A program made the position numbers and the translations under genes. The notes under the pieces were generated by a model. The model saw only the letters and a program-made list of their open reading frames with translations. It was not told the origin of the DNA and did no database searches. Positions 23,648 to 46,497 of a stretch of 64,000 bases of DNA are shown here, in pieces (positions within the stretch are counted from its first letter, which is position 1; every line of letters begins with the position of its first letter). Source of the DNA: a phage. The stretch is taken from the sequence record PZ026127.1, one strand, 5' to 3'.

Positions 23648-24666
23648 AAATATTAAACACAGGTGACTGGCACCTTGGAGTGAAGAACGACGACCCTTGG
23701 GTGCAAAATATTCAATTGGCAGGCATTAAAGACGCCATCAATTATTCTAAAGCAAATGGTATCACTGTCTGGATTCAGTATGGTGATATTTTTGATGTTC
23801 GTAAAGCAATTACTCATAAGTGCATGGAATTTGCCAGACATATTTCAGATTTGCTTAAAGAAAATGGCATTACCATGTATACTGTTGTTGGTAACCATGA
23901 TGCACACTACAAAAATACCTTGACTCCGAACGCTGCTTCTGAAGTTCTGGGTAAATACGACCATATCAAGGTTATTGAGAAACCTACTACGGTTAATTTT
24001 GATGGTACAGAAATTGATTTGATTCCATGGATGTGTGAAGAAAACACGACCGATATCATGGACCATATCAAAAATACTACTGCCGATTTCTGTATTGGCC
24101 ACTGGGAATTAAATGGTTTCTATTTCTATAAAGGAATGAAATCACATGGTTTAGAACCTGATTTCCTTAAGAAGTATAAGCAAGTATGGTCTGGTCACTT
24201 CCACACCATTTCTGATGCAGCAAACGTCAAGTATATTGGTACGCCATGGACCCTGACTGCAGGTGATGAGAACGACCCTCGTGGCTTCTGGATTTTCGAT
24301 ACAGAAACCCATAAAATGGATTTCATCATCAATGAAACTTGTTGGCATCGTAAGATTCATTATCCGAATGCGACTATCGATTACAAAGATTTTACAAATA
24401 TTGCGGTTCGTGTTATAGTCGATAAAATTGATGACGGGCTTACCAAGTTCGAATCTGAACTTGAAAAGGTTGTTCACTCTTTACGTATTGTGTCTAAGGT
24501 AGATAACAGTGTTGATATCGATGATTCTGAAGAGGAAGATGAAGTTAAGTCCCTCTTGGATATGATGTATGATTATATCGATGCCCTTCCTGATGGCCGC
24601 ACTGAAGACGATGTTAAAGCCCTTAAGACTATGGCCGCACAACTTTATAATGAGGTTACACGATGA
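23644..24666 (+). CDS. 47: Recombination nuclease gp47 (Mre11/SbcD-like)
   Basis: Phosphoesterase motifs GDWHLG, GDIFD, GNHD, GHxH; located next to gp46 homolog. Confidence 0.88.
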   Translation: MKILNTGDWHLGVKNDDPWVQNIQLAGIKDAINYSKANGITVWIQYGDIFDVRKAITHKCMEFARHISDLLKENGITMYTVVGNHDAHYKNTLTPNAASEVLGKYDHIKVIEKPTTVNFDGTEIDLIPWMCEENTTDIMDHIKNTTADFCIGHWELNGFYFYKGMKSHGLEPDFLKKYKQVWSGHFHTISDAANVKYIGTPWTLTAGDENDPRGFWIFDTETHKMDFIINETCWHRKIHYPNATIDYKDFTNIAVRVIVDKIDDGLTKFESELEKVVHSLRIVSKVDNSVDIDDSEEEDEVKSLLDMMYDYIDALPDGRTEDDVKALKTMAAQLYNEVTR

Positions 24667-24926
24667 CTTTAGATGAATTCAAAAAATCGGGACTTGAACT
24701 AGAACACGACTGCATCGTTATTGATGACGACGGACAAACGAGTATTATTAAGTTCTGGTTTGAAGCCGTGAGCACTCGCGACACCAACGAGCTTATTAAA
24801 GTTTATGTTGCTACTGATTGGGCTGTGGAATTTAGCTTTAATGTAATGGTAGATGATACTCCAGAAACATTAATTCATATGGCTGAATCATGCATCAAGG
24901 ATGCTTATAACGATGAAGACTTTTAA
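24663..24926 (+). CDS. Hypothetical protein
   Basis: 87-aa ORF between 47 and 46. Confidence 0.35.
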   Translation: MTLDEFKKSGLELEHDCIVIDDDGQTSIIKFWFEAVSTRDTNELIKVYVATDWAVEFSFNVMVDDTPETLIHMAESCIKDAYNDEDF

Positions 24927-26595
24927 GTTAAAGAAAGTAACGTATAAAAATATTATGTCGGTAGGGCAGCAGCCCATTACAATTCAACTTGACAAGGTCC
25001 AAAAGACCTTAGTCACCGGTAAAAATGGTGCAGGGAAATCTACTTTCCTTGAAGCCGTTACATTTGCTCTGTTCGGTAAGCCTTTTCGTGATGTTAAGAA
25101 AGGGCAGTTGATTAACTCAAGTAATAAGAAAGACCTTTTGGTCGAACTGTGGATGGAATATGATGGCAAAGAATACTATATCAAGCGCGGGCAAAAACCC
25201 AATATTTTTGAAATCTCTTGTGGCGGTGAACGTCTTGATGAATCTGCCAGCAGTAAAGACTTCCAAGCAGAATTTGAACAGCTTATCGGAATGTCATATA
25301 CCAGTTTCAAACAGATTGTCGTACTTGGTACAGCAGGGTATACCCCTTTCATGGGTTTGTCGACCCCTGCGCGCCGAAAGCTTGTGGAAGACCTCTTAGA
25401 GGTTTCTGTATTAGCGGATATGGACAAGTTGAACAAATCTTTGATTCGTGAGACTAATAGCCAAATCCAAGTAATCGACGTTAAACAGGATTCTATTATC
25501 CAGCAAATTAAAATTTATAATGACAACGAAGAACGTCAGCGTAAATTATCAGGTGAGAACGCAGCACGTCTACAAACAATGTACGATGAGCTCGTTAAAG
25601 AAGCCAGGACTGCGAAGGGCAATATAGAAAAACTGACTGATGAATTACTCAATGTCATCGTCGATGATGACCCTAGCAACTCTATGAGTGACCTGAGCAA
25701 TAAAGGATTTGCAATCAAGAATGATATGGCAACCTTTACTAAGGTCGTGAAATTATACGAAACCGGTGGTAGTTGTCCTACATGTATGCAAGGACTGGAA
25801 GAGCATGGGAACATCCTTACTAAAATTAAGGACAAGAACTTTGAACTTCAAAAATCTTTGGATAAGATTAATGAGCAGTACCAAGAACTCAAGCTCATTA
25901 AGGACCAAGTAACCGAACAACGTAATAAAGCGCTGGCTATTAAATCTCAGATAGCTACTCATAAGCAACAAGCCATTACTGCCGTAGAGAAAGCTAAAAA
26001 AGTTAAAGTATTAATCGACCAAGCAGCTGCTGAGTTCGTAAGTAATGCCGAAGAGATTGCCACGCTTCAAGCAGAGCTTGATAAAATCGTCTCTACCAAA
26101 TCGTCCTTGGTAATGGAAAAATACCATCGTGGAATTCTGACAGAAATGTTGAAGGATACTGGTATTAAAGGTTCCATTATTAAGAAATACATTCCTATCT
26201 TTAATAAGCAGATAAATTCTTATTTGAAGATTATGGAAGCGGACTACGTCTTTACACTAGACGAAGAGTTCAATGAGACGATTAAATCACGTGGACGTGA
26301 AGACTTTAGTTATGCTTCATTTTCACAGGGTGAGAAAGCACGTATTGATATCGCACTACTTTTTACATGGCGCGATATTGCTTCTAAGGTATCAGGTGTT
26401 AATATCAGCACGTTAATTCTTGATGAGGTATTTGACAGTGCTACTGACGCTGAAGGCGTTAAGACCATTGCAACCATCTTGAATAGCCTTGAGGATACGA
26501 ACGTGTTCATTATCTCTCACCGAGACCATGACCCACAAGCTTATGGCCAACATCTTCAAATGAAGAAAGTTGGACGATTCACGGTGATGGAATGA
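24913..26595 (+). CDS. 46: Recombination ATPase gp46 (Rad50/SbcC-like)
   Basis: N-terminal Walker A GKNGAGKST, coiled-coil middle with CPTC zinc hook, C-terminal signature SGGE-like and Walker B LILDEVFD. Confidence 0.9.
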   Translation: MKTFKLKKVTYKNIMSVGQQPITIQLDKVQKTLVTGKNGAGKSTFLEAVTFALFGKPFRDVKKGQLINSSNKKDLLVELWMEYDGKEYYIKRGQKPNIFEISCGGERLDESASSKDFQAEFEQLIGMSYTSFKQIVVLGTAGYTPFMGLSTPARRKLVEDLLEVSVLADMDKLNKSLIRETNSQIQVIDVKQDSIIQQIKIYNDNEERQRKLSGENAARLQTMYDELVKEARTAKGNIEKLTDELLNVIVDDDPSNSMSDLSNKGFAIKNDMATFTKVVKLYETGGSCPTCMQGLEEHGNILTKIKDKNFELQKSLDKINEQYQELKLIKDQVTEQRNKALAIKSQIATHKQQAITAVEKAKKVKVLIDQAAAEFVSNAEEIATLQAELDKIVSTKSSLVMEKYHRGILTEMLKDTGIKGSIIKKYIPIFNKQINSYLKIMEADYVFTLDEEFNETIKSRGREDFSYASFSQGEKARIDIALLFTWRDIASKVSGVNISTLILDEVFDSATDAEGVKTIATILNSLEDTNVFIISHRDHDPQAYGQHLQMKKVGRFTVME

Positions 26596-33903: not shown

Positions 33904-34404
33904 ATGAAAAAGTTAATTATCGCAATGAGTATGCTCCTATCAGGTTGCGCGGTCCAATATGGTGATACAGTTTCGGCCGATGAAGTTGGTAAAGCTCGTA
34001 TCGCAGCTGAACAGAAACAATTCGATGGCGAAATGAAATTCCGTGCAGGTTCTGGACTTGTGTACACCCGAGCTAATAATCAATGCGGTAATAACTGTGC
34101 AAAATATGCTCAACAAGAAATCGAATTCCAACGTGAACAAGAGTCCAAGCGTGAAGCGGTACTAGCCAAACACCAGGCAGAAATGAAGCGTCAAGATGAT
34201 TTGTACAAAAAGCAGAAACTGTATGCGATGTGCGTAAACCATATCAATCTACAGATTTCCATCCACGAGGCTCGTTATTACGAAATGCTCGAAACCGAGA
34301 GCTTCGGTAAAGCTCGTGATTATAAGAAACAAATCGATAAGCTCAAGACCAAAGCACCGGCGGCAATAGAACAGTGTATTGAAATCGGTAAAGATAAGAT
34401 TTAA
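33904..34404 (+). CDS. Putative lipoprotein
   Basis: Signal peptide with lipobox LLSGC; coiled-coil-like remainder. Confidence 0.5.
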   Translation: MKKLIIAMSMLLSGCAVQYGDTVSADEVGKARIAAEQKQFDGEMKFRAGSGLVYTRANNQCGNNCAKYAQQEIEFQREQESKREAVLAKHQAEMKRQDDLYKKQKLYAMCVNHINLQISIHEARYYEMLETESFGKARDYKKQIDKLKTKAPAAIEQCIEIGKDKI

Positions 34405-34464
34405 GCAATACCAATTTATTAAAAATAGTGTATAATGTACCTACATTCACTTGAGGAACAGATA

Positions 34465-36138
34465 ATGAAAAAGGTTGTTATTTTAGGCGCGGGTCTTGGC
34501 TCACGGTTGTATCCAATTACCAACGAAATCCCGAAGGTACTGGTTAACTACAAACAACATACTGTATTAAAACATTTGTATGATTTGTATAGTAATCAAT
34601 CAGATGAAATTATTCTGGTTATTCACAGCAAATTTAACGACCTCGTTAAAGGCTATATTAAATCCATTAACATGATTAATAGTGATAAGCCTAAATTCAC
34701 TATTCGTAACGTTGATGTTGCCAATGGTTCGGCTCATGCTATCGATTGCATTGCCGAAGATATCATTGGGCACAATGTCTTGTTTAACTGGTGTGATATT
34801 ATTCCTGAAGGTCATAAAGTTGAGTGGGATAACGACTACTGTTATACCTATGGGACTGACTGTCGTTTTACATTTGAAGAACCGTACTTGCGTGAAATTG
34901 GTACCGGTGGTGGCGTAGTTGGCTTGTATCAGGTGGCTAATTGGACAGGTTTCGACCGTTCTAATTATGGTGAAGACCTTGCTGACAACCTGGATTCAAT
35001 GGTCCATTTGACTGAACGTAAGTTAGACTTTGTAGTTGATGTTGGTGACAAACTGAAACTGGCTAAGGCCCATGAAGATTCTGAAATTAACCGTGAATTT
35101 AATAAATTAGAGTTCACTGAGAATCTAGCTATTAAAGTACCTACAAACGAATTAGGTAAAGAAATCCAATCTAAAGAAATCAATTGGTACAATTCTATTG
35201 ATTCTGAATTCGTTCCTAGCATTGTAGACTTTGCTCCAGGTGAATTCATTAAAATGGAACGTATCTTTGGTCGAACCATGGCAGATGCCTACCGGTTTAT
35301 GTCTAAAGAAACTAAAGTCCTAATGGTTTATAAGGTTATTAGTGCATTACGTTCGTTCGGTGGAACTATCGATAATCCATCTGATGAGCAATGGTATTCT
35401 GATGTTAAGAAAGAAGTATTGGACAAGGTCCTTATTCGTAATGCTTCTATCGCCGGATTGATTGAAGGCTTTGCTCCACAGGGCATTACCCATGTTAACG
35501 ACTTTAAGGTAGGCGACCCTGAAAAACTTCTTCGCCATGCACTAGAAATTCTGTCTGAACATAAAGAACCGTACCAACTTATTCATGGCGACCCGCACTA
35601 CAGTAATATTATGTTGTCGGACGAAGGTGATATTAAAATCATCGACCCACGTGGTTATTTTGGTAATAGTTCTAAAGGCCCTGCGATTTATGATGAAGCT
35701 AAGGTGCTTTATTCTATCGATGGTTATGACAAATTTAACTCTGACCCTCTATGGGGTGGCTTAACTCGTAACGGAACTCGTGTATTCGTTGATATTGAAA
35801 AGGTTATGCCTTTAGATGATATTCCAATGTGTACATTTAAGCACAAGCTCTGGATTGCTGTTATCTGGATGGCATTGGCAGGTTACTTTAAAAATAACCC
35901 TCTGAAAGCTCTGGGTGCTTATTACAACGGTTTGTACCAACTGAGTGTGCTGCTGAAGCGACATCCTCGTAAGCGTAAGCTTATCACAGGTGAATTCGTT
36001 GATGAAGTTCGCGACCCTATCACGGCTCAAATTATCACTCGTTGTCCTGATAAGTGGGTTTTGCTTGACCAAGAAACTGGTGTAAAATATAAACCTACAG
36101 GTTCTACTGAACTCCACAAACAATGGAAGAAAATTTAA
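34465..36138 (+). CDS. Bifunctional sugar-1-phosphate nucleotidyltransferase / APH-family (anomeric sugar) kinase
   Basis: N-terminal KVVILGAGLGSRLYPIT...PKVLV matches the RmlA/GlmU-type NTase signature; C-terminal IHGDPHYSNIML (Brenner HGDxxxxN) and IIDPRG typical of APH/choline-kinase-like kinases. Confidence 0.6.
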   Translation: MKKVVILGAGLGSRLYPITNEIPKVLVNYKQHTVLKHLYDLYSNQSDEIILVIHSKFNDLVKGYIKSINMINSDKPKFTIRNVDVANGSAHAIDCIAEDIIGHNVLFNWCDIIPEGHKVEWDNDYCYTYGTDCRFTFEEPYLREIGTGGGVVGLYQVANWTGFDRSNYGEDLADNLDSMVHLTERKLDFVVDVGDKLKLAKAHEDSEINREFNKLEFTENLAIKVPTNELGKEIQSKEINWYNSIDSEFVPSIVDFAPGEFIKMERIFGRTMADAYRFMSKETKVLMVYKVISALRSFGGTIDNPSDEQWYSDVKKEVLDKVLIRNASIAGLIEGFAPQGITHVNDFKVGDPEKLLRHALEILSEHKEPYQLIHGDPHYSNIMLSDEGDIKIIDPRGYFGNSSKGPAIYDEAKVLYSIDGYDKFNSDPLWGGLTRNGTRVFVDIEKVMPLDDIPMCTFKHKLWIAVIWMALAGYFKNNPLKALGAYYNGLYQLSVLLKRHPRKRKLITGEFVDEVRDPITAQIITRCPDKWVLLDQETGVKYKPTGSTELHKQWKKI

Positions 36139-36521
36139 TGTCACATCGAGTAGAAAATAAGCCTCATTTATGTTTTGACATCGATAACACAATCACGATT
36201 TGGAACCATGACCGTGATTATGAAAACTTTAAACCGGACACCGAAATGGTGTCCATGATTAATAAGCTTTATGATGAAGGATGCGAGATTACCTTGTTCA
36301 CTGCCCGTGGTATGACTTCATGCGGTCCAGGTCGAATCTTGGTTGAAGTAGTTCCTGCATTGGTTAAGAATCTTGAAAAGATTGGATTGAAATATCATAA
36401 TCTGCTTACACATAAGCCGAGTTATACTTTTATCATCGATGACCGAGCAATCCGTCCTGACCACTTTAAAGAAATGGTTCGTGAAGGAACTCTTGAAACC
36501 TATAAGGCATATCATCCGTGA
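36138..36521 (+). CDS. HAD-superfamily phosphatase
   Basis: Motif I FDIDNTIT (DxDxT), motif II LFTARG, motif IV IIDDR; TAATG overlap with upstream gene. Confidence 0.6.
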   Translation: MSHRVENKPHLCFDIDNTITIWNHDRDYENFKPDTEMVSMINKLYDEGCEITLFTARGMTSCGPGRILVEVVPALVKNLEKIGLKYHNLLTHKPSYTFIIDDRAIRPDHFKEMVREGTLETYKAYHP

Positions 36522-37054
36522 AACCAAAAATCATTGTTATCGACGGCCCGGATAATTCCGGGAAGTCTACTTTAATTGAATCGCTTTTATCTGATAAGAA
36601 ATATCGTCTTATCGATTTCCCTAAAAAGATTAATGGTAAGTGCATTTCGATAGGGACTGATAATGACAAGGCTTTAGTCGAGACGTTGTATAAGTTTTTA
36701 GACCCTAATTTTGTCTACATCTTAGACCGTGGATATCCTAGTAATATTGTTTACTCAGGATTCCTTCGTGGTGAAATGGACCCCTATGTAGAACTGGAAG
36801 ATTGGAAAGGGTTTAAATCTGAATTCAATATTATTGAGGTTATTTTAACCCGTAATCCACTGGATAAAGACTTTGAAGATGACCTTATTAAATTAACCAA
36901 AGATGAGTTCAACCTAACTATCCGGCAATATGAAACATGTTTTGAAAACGTGTTTAAAATCTTAAATCACGACGGCCATAATAACTTGCTTAACGTCGAT
37001 ATGGTAGAATTAAAACGTCTGAATGAATATATTGAAAATAAGGTGAATAAATGA
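36518..37054 (+). CDS. P-loop kinase (thymidylate/dNMP kinase-like)
   Basis: IIVIDGPDNSGKSTL Walker A at N-terminus, DRGYPS; 178 aa. Confidence 0.5.
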   Translation: MKPKIIVIDGPDNSGKSTLIESLLSDKKYRLIDFPKKINGKCISIGTDNDKALVETLYKFLDPNFVYILDRGYPSNIVYSGFLRGEMDPYVELEDWKGFKSEFNIIEVILTRNPLDKDFEDDLIKLTKDEFNLTIRQYETCFENVFKILNHDGHNNLLNVDMVELKRLNEYIENKVNK

Positions 37055-37749
37055 AACACATTACCGCTGTTAGTTTTGAAAACGCGTTTAAGCAAATGAA
37101 CGAAGAAATCCTGGAAGCTCCACAGTTTGCAGTTGATTCTCGTATCGGCCGTTGTTATGAAATTGGTTCTGCTTCGGTAGAAGTACTGGATGCAAGCACC
37201 TATAAATTCACCGACCCTCGTATTAATCGTATCAACTATGATTATGCCGAATCTTTCTGGAAGTTTATGATTTCTGGTGGTACTGACGCCGCCGAAGCAT
37301 TTAAGGAATACCCTAATGTTGCTAAGTTCATTGATAAGCCGAAAAGTGACGTATTGCCTGCAAACTTCAACACTTTCTATGGACCTAGAATTGTGGCCCA
37401 ACTCCCAGCCTTACTTAAAGAGCTTAAAGAGAAGCCTAACTCAAGACGAGTTGTGTTCCAAATTCTCCAAGAACAAGACCAAGCCCTCCTTGATTCTGAC
37501 GAATCCTTAGAATATCCATGTACCGATTCGGTGACATATTATATTCGTGATGGACGTCTGTATGCACACACTCATATGCGTTCACAGAACTGTGCTATTG
37601 TTATGCAGCTGGATTTCTATCTGCAGGGTAAACTGATGGCCTTTATTGCTGAACAGTGTGGTGTTGGTCTGGGTACGTATTCCCATACTATGGTTAGTGC
37701 ACACGTATTTGAACGTGATTTTGACTACGTTCGAGGATTCCTGAAATGA
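37051..37749 (+). CDS. 42: dCMP hydroxymethylase (thymidylate synthase fold)
   Basis: RRVVFQI, catalytic Cys in EYPCTDS, MRSQN...LDF with Asp at the pyrimidine-discriminating position as in T4 gp42; T4 position. Confidence 0.75.
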   Translation: MKHITAVSFENAFKQMNEEILEAPQFAVDSRIGRCYEIGSASVEVLDASTYKFTDPRINRINYDYAESFWKFMISGGTDAAEAFKEYPNVAKFIDKPKSDVLPANFNTFYGPRIVAQLPALLKELKEKPNSRRVVFQILQEQDQALLDSDESLEYPCTDSVTYYIRDGRLYAHTHMRSQNCAIVMQLDFYLQGKLMAFIAEQCGVGLGTYSHTMVSAHVFERDFDYVRGFLK

Positions 37750-38639
37750 GTTTGTTTATCGTTCCTATTTTCAGTATGCGTAGTTACGAAACAGGTGAAT
37801 ATGCCGTCCTTAAGGACGGCAATTTTCAACTCCATTTAAACCGTGCTTGCCCAGGTGATTATCTGGCTTATCCTAGAAATTCGAGCGATATCAAAGAATG
37901 CATTGAATTATTTCCTGAACTGAATTTTGTACCTCTTTGGTATAAAGAAAATGCTTATGAAACTCGTAAACATTTTTGGTCTGAAAATGAGTTCGTTGTT
38001 GATTCGTTAATCGAATACTATGACTGCTCAGGATTGGTAACCGATATCACAGGTTATGATGGTGCTCATACCGTACAATTCAACTTTAACATTACAATGG
38101 ACCCTGAAGTTCCTCGTTATTACATCGATGAGTTTATTGATACCGACGTGGGTTCAGTTGAACGTTCGATTTATACTACAGTCTTGAATCAATGTCAGAA
38201 AGACGTCCTGGTGTCACGAGGTGCGTCCTCTGATAAGATTTTTGTAGACCAAAAGGTAATTAATCCTGCAGTAATTGAGCGTTACTCTGAAGGTCTAGCG
38301 CCTATTAAAATTGATGGTATTTTCCATCCATTCCGTATTTCAGATAAATGCTACCAATTCGAAAGAGTTGTAGACCAGGCTGCGGCTGAGGGTTCTCGTC
38401 TTTACATCACCGACCCGAATGATTCATTTAAGCGTGAAGACTATCGTCCTGATGTAGAGATTATTAAATTCAAACCGAGTAAGGTTGAATATTATCAGAT
38501 TCTGAAATCAAGACCTCATATCATTTATCATGAGAATCCCGGTTTAGTATTCCATCCTGGTCTGGCTGAATTCATTTATTTCGGTGCCCACATCCATTCT
38601 GAGCACGAAATGCCAAGTTATGAGGACGTGGTCCTTTAA
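37746..38639 (+). CDS. Orphan protein in beta-glucosyltransferase slot (candidate DNA glycosyltransferase)
   Basis: 297 aa between 42 and uvsX, where T4 has beta-gt; no resemblance to T4 alpha- or beta-gt that I can recognise. Confidence 0.3.
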   Translation: MSLFIVPIFSMRSYETGEYAVLKDGNFQLHLNRACPGDYLAYPRNSSDIKECIELFPELNFVPLWYKENAYETRKHFWSENEFVVDSLIEYYDCSGLVTDITGYDGAHTVQFNFNITMDPEVPRYYIDEFIDTDVGSVERSIYTTVLNQCQKDVLVSRGASSDKIFVDQKVINPAVIERYSEGLAPIKIDGIFHPFRISDKCYQFERVVDQAAAEGSRLYITDPNDSFKREDYRPDVEIIKFKPSKVEYYQILKSRPHIIYHENPGLVFHPGLAEFIYFGAHIHSEHEMPSYEDVVL

Positions 38640-45229: not shown

Positions 45230-45320
45230 GTTATCCTCCTGTTAAATTAATATTTATTCGCTTTAATCTAACAGTTTATAATTATCTAACTTACTAATGA
45301 ATTGAAAAGGAAAAAATATA

Positions 45321-45839
45321 ATGGCATACTTTAACGAATGCGCAAACCTGATTGATGGTGTTGATAAAGCTGAGGAAGCTTATTTTAATGCTCTGATTCA
45401 TGAAGATAAAGACCCTCTGCAAGTTATGCTTGATATGCAGAAATCTTTACAGGTTCGTTTGGCTAATGACCGTGAATATTGTTACCATCCGGACAAATTA
45501 GCGACAGCCGGTGATGTTGTTGCTTGGATGCGTGAACAGAAAGATTGTATTGACGATGAATTCCGTGAACTTCTGACTTCCCTCGGTGAAATGTCTAAAG
45601 GTGAGAAAGATGCATCTGCTGTATGGAAAAAATGGAAAGCCCGTTACCCGGAAGCACAAGCCAAACCTATTTCAGAAATGTCTCCTGAAGACCAGCTTGA
45701 AATTAAATTTGAACTCATTGATATTATGCACTTCGTATTCAATATGGCTATTGGCCTGAATATGTCGGCTGAAGAAATGTTTAAACTTTATTATCTGAAG
45801 AATGCTGAAAACTTTGCAAGGCAGGACCGTGGCTATTAA
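45321..45839 (+). CDS. 56: dCTP pyrophosphatase gp56
   Basis: 172 aa; very strong match to T4 gp56 (MAxFNECA, LQVMLDMQ, CYHPDKL, WMREQKDCIDDEFRELLTSLGEM, KWKARY, YYLKNxENFARQDRGY). Confidence 0.93.
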   Translation: MAYFNECANLIDGVDKAEEAYFNALIHEDKDPLQVMLDMQKSLQVRLANDREYCYHPDKLATAGDVVAWMREQKDCIDDEFRELLTSLGEMSKGEKDASAVWKKWKARYPEAQAKPISEMSPEDQLEIKFELIDIMHFVFNMAIGLNMSAEEMFKLYYLKNAENFARQDRGY

Positions 45840-46497
45840 GGCTAAGTTTTATAGAACTTATTTGATAAAAATTAGGACGCCGAAAGGTGTCTTTTGGTAT
45901 GGTGGTAAACATGAAACCTTTATACTAAATCCAAATAAAGATAGATATCCAGGTTCTGGCAAAATCTTATGGAATATGTATAAAAAGTATGGTCTAAAAT
46001 ATAAAATACGTTGGTTTGTAGGCCACCAAAATTTAGAAGAATCTTTTAATCATGAAAGACTTTTAATAGCCAAAATAAGAGAAAAGCATCCTAACGAATG
46101 CTTGAATATATTACCAGGTGGCGCTGGCAGCGAAGGACATAAATGGACTGAAGAACAGTGTATAGAGCACAAGCTTAGATTAAATAAACCTGAAACTAAG
46201 ATTAAAATGAGGAAGGCTCAAGCTATAGCTCAGAATAGGCCTGAACGTAAAGCTCGTCAATCAGAAATAATGAAAGAGTTTTATGAGAATGGTGGGAATA
46301 AATTAATATCTGAAGCCACTTCTAAAGCTCAACGAACTGCTCCTCATTGGCATGAACCATTGAAAAGCGAAATCTATAATATTTGGCTTTCATTAGGTAA
46401 ACCAACTACAGGTCCTGTAGTCAAAGAACTTAAAGGTAAATATGACGTTACCGCAAGTGCTCTCAAAAATTTAATATACTCTTTTAGAGATATATAA
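45802..46497 (+). CDS. Putative free-standing GIY-YIG-type homing endonuclease (Seg-like)
   Basis: N-terminal YRTYLIKIRTPKGVFWYGGKH, LPGGAGS, NUMOD3-like HKWTEEQCIEHKLRLNK; overlaps 3' end of 56; start uncertain (ATG 45802 or GTG 45829). Confidence 0.5.
   Translation: MLKTLQGRTVAIKAKFYRTYLIKIRTPKGVFWYGGKHETFILNPNKDRYPGSGKILWNMYKKYGLKYKIRWFVGHQNLEESFNHERLLIAKIREKHPNECLNILPGGAGSEGHKWTEEQCIEHKLRLNKPETKIKMRKAQAIAQNRPERKARQSEIMKEFYENGGNKLISEATSKAQRTAPHWHEPLKSEIYNIWLSLGKPTTGPVVKELKGKYDVTASALKNLIYSFRDI

Follow-up and report, generated by a model that had tools for sequence, protein, structure and literature searches.

The subject of this report is a 64,000-nucleotide stretch of phage DNA (sequence record PZ026127.1; "the window" below means this whole stretch) and, within it, an open reading frame (ORF) on the plus strand at positions 37746..38639. 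The ORF begins with ATG and encodes a 297-residue protein that is almost certainly a member of the published phage arabinosyltransferase-1 family (RB69 gp46:47, DLP3 gp79, HY126 XAN60474, and Thanatos TH1_063). With confidence that stands at about the midpoint of our scale, we predict that it is the initiating glycosyltransferase (GT) of a cytosine-arabinosylation pathway, namely a 5-hydroxycytosine arabinosyltransferase with a compact GT-B fold. A preliminary description, made from the letters of this DNA alone, had delimited the same ORF, and its coordinates, strand, and length were reproduced exactly. It had also presented the product as an orphan and as the most likely transferase of a putative sugar modification on hydroxymethylcytosine (hmC) DNA. 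The guess of a sugar transferase stands insofar as the protein has a GT-B fold and is orthologous to putative arabinosyltransferase 1, whereas the orphan status and the hmC acceptor do not.

Family membership and genomic position

Far from being an orphan, the protein is orthologous to the published putative arabinosyltransferase 1 and has full-length homologues in 355 phage records (tblastn against the phage collection), with hosts including Escherichia, Acinetobacter, Klebsiella, Shigella, Serratia, Enterobacter, Proteus, Yersinia, and Shewanella. In addition, 117 clusters were found among 5.8 billion proteins by a word-indexed search, and 240 family representatives (50 % identity level) at E <= 0.001 among 1.84 billion proteins by an exhaustive profile search. 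The protein also matches PHROG 3891, a group annotated as "unknown function," at E 8e-159. Arabinosylated 5-hydroxycytosine has been reported in the DNA of RB69, HY126, LC53, Thanatos, and DLP3, and an orthologue is found in each of these phages. In RB69 the relationship extends over two adjacent genes, gp47 and gp46 (ORF047c + ORF046c; 70 % and 64 % identity, tblastn E 4e-86 and 3e-44), while the HY126 orthologue XAN60474 is one intact ORF of 299 amino acids (67 % identity). The RB69 split was ascribed to a sequencing error by Lee et al. (NAR 2026, PMC13326640), which the single HY126 ORF confirms. The LC53 orthologue is 63 % identical to the window protein, Thanatos TH1_063 is 51 % identical and lies at the same gene position, and DLP3 gp79 (ADLP3_079 / XEO41459.1) is 49.8 % identical over 305 amino acids (tblastn E 7e-89). 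Lee et al. named DLP3 gp79 and RB69 gp46:47 putative "arabinosyltransferase 1" and listed the Dhakaviruses among the genera with a syntenic cluster (PMC13326640). The kind of protein is thus already known and the genus already named in that 2026 paper.

By DNA identity, the window belongs to a Dhakavirus-type T4-like phage. Over the ORF it is 95-99 % identical to MX01, WG01, Bp7, and IME08, and it is collinear with MX01 across ∼60 kb. The MX01 orthologue shares 98.7 % DNA identity and 99.0 % protein identity with the window gene; judged from this comparison, in which 1.3 % of the nucleotides have changed against 3/297 residues, the gene is under purifying selection. Its ATG and the TGA stop of the preceding thymidylate-synthase-like gene overlap by 4 nt (junction AAATGAGT), and it closes a run of five genes at 34435-38639 whose stops and starts overlap. 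The gene order in the window is 43, imm, five extra genes of which the last is gp42-like, the ORF under study, uvsX, 40, and 41. In T4 the order is 43, imm.1, imm, 42, b-gt, segA, uvsX, 40, and 41. The ORF therefore lies directly after the gp42 homologue and before uvsX, in the slot held in T4 by beta-glucosyltransferase (beta-gt), just as the preliminary description had it. The same description had recognized no resemblance to T4 alpha- or beta-glucosyltransferase, and we agree. BLASTP of T4 beta-gt against the protein gave only E = 6, which amounts to no sequence homology, and alpha-glucosyltransferase (alpha-gt) and beta-gt of T4 scored E 0.26-0.32 against the family profile, a nonsignificant value in a database of five sequences.

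The family also has a divergent paralogue in Serratia phage PS2, gp042 (L017 4501-5427; E 1.4e-24, ∼20-25 % identity), which is likewise found in Muldoon and SP1. It stands right after a gp42 of the hmC type (motif MRSND) and before beta-alpha-gt-like and b-gt-like genes, in a locus without pentose-activation genes. Most of the residues that are invariant in the family are replaced in gp042, including R12Q, R74V, R197N, K246L, and H270D, and the protein may be a sugar transferase of another kind or a relic without activity. We considered gp042 as a bridge between the family and T4 beta-gt and rejected it: it is a real divergent paralogue with no link to b-gt, and the b-gt proteins of T4 and PS2 scored E 0.24-0.32 against the family profile.

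In the Dhakavirus records listed, the gene is labeled "hypothetical protein" or, wrongly, "RNA polymerase binding protein." The latter name is carried by the orthologues of C6 (MW679410), IME341 (NC_055742), LC53 (OP617331), and SAKp28 (PP660556). It found no support here and is apparently an annotation-transfer error.

Fold and conserved residues

An AlphaFold2 model of the protein was built from a 40-sequence alignment. The model has a mean predicted local distance difference test (pLDDT) of 94.6, a predicted template modeling score (pTM) of 0.89, and no disordered segment. Its strands and helices alternate in two Rossmann-like beta/alpha/beta domains separated by a cleft, which is the architecture of the GT-B superfamily; the fold prediction that had been proposed as a check thus returned a glycosyltransferase-like fold. 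Among the fold matches were BshA (score 16.8), the PglH-type protein 8dqd (16.3), PimA (16.0), the HY126 phage glycosyltransferase 9iqz (14.0), and T4 alpha-gt 1y6f (13.2). Foldseek against the PDB returned GT-B-fold proteins only, with UDP-GlcNAc 2-epimerases (UDP, uridine diphosphate) marginally above MshA. In BFVD, the KARL-1 orthologue was matched at a template modeling (TM) score of 0.96, followed by both RB69 halves and then by annotated viral glycosyltransferases, and TM-scores to members of the arabinosyltransferase-1 family were 0.96-0.97. A Pfam scan assigned the protein to no family at E <= 0.1, and a scan of 40 homologues found no GT family at E <= 1. As modeled, the protein is a compact GT-B protein in a sequence family of its own, outside GT4 and the T4 alpha- and beta-gt families.

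By analogy with other GT-B enzymes, the N-terminal domain (approximately residues 1-185; 37746..38300, plus strand) would be the acceptor-binding half and the C-terminal domain (approximately residues 186-297; 38301..38636, plus strand) the nucleotide-sugar-binding half. Across 236 homologues, the conserved residues are S10, R12, Y19, D24-G25-N26, P43, Y66, R74, and Q151 in the N-terminal domain and P195, R197, D200, Y203, N225, H270, and E275 in the C-terminal domain; K246 is invariant only within the close tier. All 17 are placed where a beta-strand ends (on its C-terminal side) or a helix begins, in both Rossmann domains. These are the places where GT-B enzymes bind their substrates, and the pattern supports a glycosyltransferase. 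From the topology, we infer that the conserved set of the C-terminal domain may bind the UDP-sugar, with R197 and K246 directed to the diphosphate, and that the set of the N-terminal domain may bind the acceptor. H270 and E275 would fall in the ribose/sugar-binding crossover that carries the EX7E motif in GT4 enzymes. The canonical motif itself is absent; the segment equivalent by topology is H270-P-G-L-A-E275, with another spacing and another first residue. H270 is kept in 99 % and E275 in 96 % of the remote homologues.

The family lacks the canonical EX7E motif (the sequence is HPGLAE), and the protein could also be devoid of catalytic activity and act, solely in a complex with another protein, as a GT-B scaffold or specificity subunit. 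There is a precedent in DLP3, where gp76 and gp77 are active only as a pair and the individual GTs are inactive in vitro (PMC13326640). We consider such a role highly improbable: the conservation of 17 polar or aromatic residues at cleft-type positions over 236 homologues is typical of an active site, and neither Dhakavirus nor Thanatos has a second GT to serve as a partner.

Predicted acceptor, sugar supply, and number of arabinoses

The acceptor is predicted from the gene directly upstream. This gene (37051..37749, plus strand; Pfam PF00303), in the gp42 position, encodes a thymidylate synthase (TS) homologue of the 5-hydroxy-dCMP synthase type (dCMP, deoxycytidine monophosphate). With RB69 gp48 and with the HY126 enzyme it shares 79 % identity, and it matches PDB entries 9iqu and 9iqc at E 1.5e-125. 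RB69 gp48 makes 5-hydroxy-dCMP experimentally, and an Asn in place of ThyA Asp169 was proposed as diagnostic of this activity (Lee et al., PMC13326640). The window enzyme has this Asn: N180 (codon 37588-37590) corresponds to ThyA D169, and D188 (37612-37614) corresponds to ThyA N177. The local motif is MRSQN in the window, RB69 gp48, and DLP3 gp80, MRSEN in Thanatos TH1_062, and MRSND in T4 gp42 and Serratia PS2 gp043, and an Asn occupies the same position in two distant metagenomic relatives. In every relative of the family examined, including contigs of 383 and 166 kb, an Asn-type TS homologue adjoins the homologue of the ORF. Judged by these residues, the phage very probably makes 5-hydroxycytosine and not hydroxymethylcytosine. 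Because the neighboring enzyme carries the Asn signature and is 79 % identical to proven synthases, 5-hydroxycytosine is also the predicted acceptor. The earlier proposal of hmC DNA as the acceptor is, for the same reason, very probably wrong, and an assay of transfer to hmC DNA would probably fail. Dhakavirus DNA, on this sequence evidence, should contain derivatives of 5-hydroxycytosine instead of hmC. In GenBank, the TS orthologues are called "thymidylate synthase" or "dCMP hydroxymethylase," both of which are probably wrong.

Genes for the supply of UDP-arabinose lie in the same operon. The first gene (34435..36138, plus strand, probable start 34465) encodes a bifunctional 567-amino-acid protein with an NTP-transferase domain and an APH-type kinase domain (Pfam PF00483 and PF01636). 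Its identity is 41-45 % to RB69 gp52:53 and DLP3 gp82 and 42.6 % to HY126 AfhE, which is reported to be an arabinose-5-phosphate 1-kinase and UDP-arabinose pyrophosphorylase (PMC13326640). The second gene (36138..36521, plus strand; longest ORF from 36123) encodes a HAD-type phosphatase of PHROG 1238 with the homologues RB69 gp51 (63 % identity), DLP3 gp81, and HY126 AfhF; AfhF is reported to be the 5-phosphatase of arabinofuranose (Araf)-1,5-bisphosphate (PMC13326640). The probable start of the window gene at 36138 was inferred from the MX01 annotation and overlaps the upstream stop by 1 nt, as in RB69. The window version of the HAD gene (36123-36521) exceeds that of MX01 (24637-24996) by 24 nt (8 codons). 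The third gene (36518..37054, plus strand, GTG start) encodes a thymidylate-kinase-like P-loop kinase of 178 amino acids, homologous to RB69 gp45 (37 % identity), DLP3 gp78, and Thanatos TH1_064.

Our current model of the pathway is as follows. The TS homologue would convert dCMP to 5-hydroxy-dCMP, which would then be phosphorylated and incorporated into phage DNA. In a second branch, the kinase/nucleotidyltransferase and the HAD phosphatase would turn arabinose-5-phosphate of the host into Araf-1,5-bisphosphate, Araf-1-phosphate, and finally UDP-Araf. The C-terminal domain of the window protein (R197, K246, H270, and E275) would bind UDP-Araf, and the enzyme would move the arabinofuranosyl group to the 5-OH of a 5-hydroxycytosine held by the N-terminal domain (R12, D24-N26, and R74). 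The resulting arabinosyl-5-hydroxycytosine would be ether-linked and presumably alpha, and it would most likely be made on DNA that has already been replicated, in the manner of the T4 glucosyltransferases. In RB69 and DLP3, the arabinose next to the base has an alpha linkage (Lee et al., PMC13326640), and a predicted alpha linkage fits the GT4-like structural neighbors of the protein, which are typically retaining.

The assignment of the first transfer to this family follows from the number of GT genes in phages with known modifications. In Thanatos, whose DNA is described as mono-arabinosylated, the homologue of the window protein is the sole GT; TH1_065 is a homologue of U32 proteins and not a GT. 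RB69, NP, and Bas46/47 have an additional gp3-type GT, and mono- plus di-arabinosyl cytosine has been reported for them. DLP3 has two gp3-type paralogues and a reported tri-arabinosyl cytosine, and its gp76 and gp77 add the later arabinoses on DNA (Lee et al., PMC13326640). The gp3-type gene is also dispensable, as an Aat deletion was obtained in Bas46. Because the number of GT genes tracks the number of sugars and this GT is universal, its family is the logical initiator.

The whole MX01 genome (168,929 bp) was assembled. In this genome, tblastn found no homologue of RB69 gp3, DLP3 gp76/77, T4 alpha- or beta-gt, or a GT1-family protein, no arabinose-5-phosphate isomerase, and no U32 protein; none of these is present in the window either. 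The idea of a second GT elsewhere in the genome was rejected, as six GT queries against MX01 and a Pfam search of ten further ORFs in the window were negative. The Dhakavirus cluster is a minimal version of the pathway, the smallest found here, with five overlapping genes, one GT, and no isomerase, U32 protein, or second GT. It would rely on host arabinose-5-phosphate, which Escherichia coli makes by KdsD and GutQ. Since the genus has no second arabinosyltransferase, we predict a single arabinose per cytosine, that is, mono-arabinosylated DNA.

Several observations weigh against an initiating transferase. On the structural side, the top Foldseek matches in the PDB, the UDP-GlcNAc 2-epimerases 7vza and 1f6d (E 1.4e-6, TM ∼0.5), are not transferases. 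Neither single-sequence nor profile searches found a meaningful sequence relative in the PDB, a comparison of the family with the gp3-type arabinosyltransferases by hhalign gave a probability of 0.1 %, and Pfam (40 members), hhalign, and the PDB profile search all gave no sequence link to any GT family. The protein is also acidic (isoelectric point (pI) 4.9, net charge -19, as compared to a pI of 9.05 for T4 beta-gt), and so marked an acidity is unusual for a DNA-binding enzyme. On the biochemical side, individual DLP3 GTs did not arabinosylate 5-hydroxycytosine DNA with UDP-Araf or UDP-Arap (Lee et al., PMC13326640), and Thanatos TH1_063 transferred nothing to plasmid DNA, dCMP, or dCTP, all of them non-hydroxylated (Brandt et al.). 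In the papers covered here, Lee et al. and Brandt et al. among them, no transferase activity is recorded for the family. What TH1_063 did form in vitro, from UTP and xylose-1-phosphate, was UDP-xylose, identified by tandem mass spectrometry (Brandt et al.).

As TH1_063 is the orthologue of the window protein, at 51 % identity and in the same position, the last result raises the possibility that the family supplies UDP-pentose, be it as a pyrophosphorylase, by a phosphorylase-type or reverse reaction, or as a UDP-sugar epimerase of GT-B fold. The rank of the UDP-GlcNAc 2-epimerases in Foldseek would fit such an enzyme, as would the fusion, in several relatives, of the HAD phosphatase that makes sugar-1-phosphate to the domain of the window protein. 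However, the GT-B fold is unlike that of sugar-1-phosphate nucleotidyltransferases, and the PF00483 signal is absent from the window protein and 40 homologues. That signal sits in the neighboring 567-residue protein, whose HY126 homologue AfhE is the reported UDP-arabinose pyrophosphorylase. Moreover, if the family were not the transferase, Thanatos and Dhakavirus would be left with no glycosyltransferase, and the divergent paralogue of Serratia PS2 occurs without pentose-activation genes. A role in UDP-pentose supply is, in our estimate, improbable. The TH1_063 data could be reconciled with an initiating arabinosyltransferase if a GT-B enzyme ran a side reaction, in reverse or of the phosphorylase type, although this is speculation.

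Gene context, level of transfer, and known systems

The genes of the pathway travel together. In the phage collection, grouped by the first word of the organism name, the counts of the ORF, the AfhE-like gene, and the kinase gene (in this order) are nearly identical: Escherichia 177/177/177, Acinetobacter 57/57/57, Klebsiella 26/25/25, Shigella 15/15/15, Enterobacter 9/9/9, Proteus 7/7/7, and Yersinia 6/6/6. Fewer records carry the gp3-type second GT (212) or the arabinose-5-phosphate isomerase (276).

Distant relatives carry the GT-like domain in fusion with other proteins of the pathway. An N-terminal HAD domain (motifs DFDG...GDD.YD) is present in P0131, P0146, P0148, P0158, P0170, P0175, and P0213, and a kinase domain (motif EGFDRIGKD[ST]) in P0200, P0201, P0211, P0214, P0221, P0225, P0239, P0248, and P0251. 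The kinase domain is N-terminal in P0214 and gives a weak PF02223 match in P0201. The fused domains were recognized by these motifs and weak Pfam matches only; phmmer of the HAD, kinase, TS, and AfhE-like proteins of the window against the fusion proteins gave no match, and a search for loci related to P0225 found none. The contigs with P0201 and P0148 are shorter than 2 kb and give no gene context. By the Rosetta-stone argument, the occurrence of both fusions is strong evidence that the HAD phosphatase, the kinase, and the GT-like protein belong to one pathway.

Two large contigs illustrate the arrangement. A 383-kb jumbo-phage contig has the order Flavodoxin_2, one further gene, TS, the homologue of the ORF, and the thymidylate-kinase-like kinase. 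Its Flavodoxin_2 gene (flavin mononucleotide reductase-like; L007 6426-6932) lies two genes upstream of TS, in keeping with the flavin dependence reported for 5-hydroxy-dCMP synthases. In an IMG/VR contig of 166 kb, the order is a Glycos_transf_1 GT, one further gene, TS, the thymidylate-kinase-like kinase, a HAD+GT-like fusion (L015 9001-10629), a SIS isomerase, and an NTP-transferase. The most divergent homologue, P0117 (L008 7496-11220, in a Logan contig of SRR22071707), has no TS gene nearby; it is flanked by a P-loop protein on one side and by faint matches to Peptidase_U32 and Exostosin_GT47 on the other. The U32-family proteins RlhA and TrhP are required for C5 hydroxylation of RNA pyrimidines, and the U32 homologues of RB69 (gp50) and Thanatos (TH1_065) share 79 % identity. 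A U32 protein might serve as an alternative or auxiliary hydroxylation factor.

The association with a kinase also bears on the level at which the first sugar is installed. In an alternative pathway, the window protein would arabinosylate free 5-hydroxy-dCMP before replication, the thymidylate-kinase-like kinase would phosphorylate the glycosylated nucleotide, and the polymerase would incorporate arabinosylated dCTP. The fusion of the GT-like domain to a thymidylate-kinase-like domain in distant relatives, the presence of the kinase gene next to the ORF in every genome examined, and the near-perfect co-occurrence of the two genes are all consistent with this order of events. In RB69, a dNMP kinase of the T4 gp1 type already serves 5-hydroxy-dCMP (PMC13326640), and a gp1-type kinase is also present in MX01, which leaves the additional thymidylate-kinase-like kinase without an assigned substrate. 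The failure of individual DLP3 GTs to arabinosylate 5-hydroxycytosine DNA would be explained by nucleotide-level glycosylation, and Lee et al. leave open whether transfer takes place on the mononucleotide or on DNA (PMC13326640). The family as a whole is acidic as well, with a median pI of 5.3.

However, a fusion indicates functional coupling and not necessarily consecutive steps, and elsewhere the GT-like domain is joined to the HAD phosphatase, which acts in the sugar branch. Overall charge is weak evidence, since T4 alpha-gt is also mildly acidic (pI 6.1); RB69 gp3 has a pI of 6.3. All phage DNA sugar modifications characterized so far are, to our knowledge, post-replicative. The abstract of PMC13326640 likewise describes phage DNA sugar modification as post-replicative, and DLP3 gp76 and gp77 attach the later arabinoses to DNA; both points count against transfer to a free nucleotide. 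With circumstantial evidence in its favor, nucleotide-level glycosylation appears unlikely to us, though it is a more serious contender than a role in UDP-pentose supply. If true, it would be the first sugar hypermodification installed on a nucleotide rather than on DNA. Transfer by the window protein to 5-hydroxycytosine in DNA is the order of events that we favor.

Three further observations concern the surroundings of the cluster. Between imm and the arabinosylation operon lies an ORF of 166 amino acids (33904-34404) with a lipoprotein-like N-terminus (MKKLIIAMSMLLSGC), which belongs to PHROG 1754 (function unassigned). As compared to MX01, the window has no Dam-type DNA adenine methyltransferase gene or adjacent ORF28 between the primase and dCTPase genes (45257-45276), and tblastn of these two MX01 proteins against the whole window gave no match. 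After the dCTPase gene, the window has an extra ORF of 231 amino acids (45802-46497) that resembles homing endonucleases of the Seg/GIY-YIG type and is 35 % identical to a "putative endonuclease" of MX01.

Arabinosyl-5-hydroxycytosine is a recently defined hypermodification of phage DNA. According to reports, phage DNA so modified is shielded from restriction enzymes, DNA glycosylases, and type I CRISPR-Cas; the modification also affects phage-therapy candidates. In the papers covered here, the first sugar transfer, the presumed job of the family, is the one step of the pathway that has yet to be reconstituted. As a minimal system, the Dhakavirus cluster would be convenient for such a reconstitution and could decide between the DNA and the nucleotide level. 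To the published family this analysis adds a direct check of the gene in the window, a corrected prediction of the acceptor (5-hydroxycytosine), the minimal Dhakavirus gene set, a list of deeply conserved residues, and the HAD and kinase fusions. The annotation of the gene and of its TS neighbor in Dhakavirus records should be revised.

Among the arabinosyltransferase-1 clusters, the Dhakavirus version is the smallest, without arabinose-5-phosphate isomerase, U32 protein, or second GT, and its order is kinase-TS-GT as compared to TS-GT-kinase in RB69, DLP3, and Thanatos. The gp3-type second arabinosyltransferase (RB69 gp3 and its HY126 counterpart, PDB 9iqz and 9ir0), which is absent from Dhakavirus, belongs to an unrelated sequence family and has a solved structure, whereas the family of the window protein has none in the PDB. 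With the retaining GT-B enzymes of the GT4 type, such as sucrose-phosphate synthase (6kih), BshA (6n1x), PimA (2gej), and MshA (3c4q), the protein shares the fold at 8-11 % identity. It differs from them in being ∼70-100 residues shorter, in its predicted nucleobase acceptor, and in the lack of EX7E and, across 40 members, of Glycos_transf_1 (PF00534). The non-hydrolyzing UDP-GlcNAc 2-epimerases (7vza and 1f6d) also share the GT-B fold, and the window protein has no Pfam match. T4 alpha-gt (1y6f) is similar in fold only; it has 400 residues instead of 297, lies at another locus, differs in donor and acceptor, and has no sequence similarity to the protein. T4 beta-gt shares with the window protein the slot after a gp42-type gene, the GT-B superfold, and, by prediction, the general role of attaching the first sugar to a 5-substituted cytosine. 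The two proteins are without sequence homology, and the neighbor of the window protein, judged by its sequence, is not a gp42 of the hmC type.

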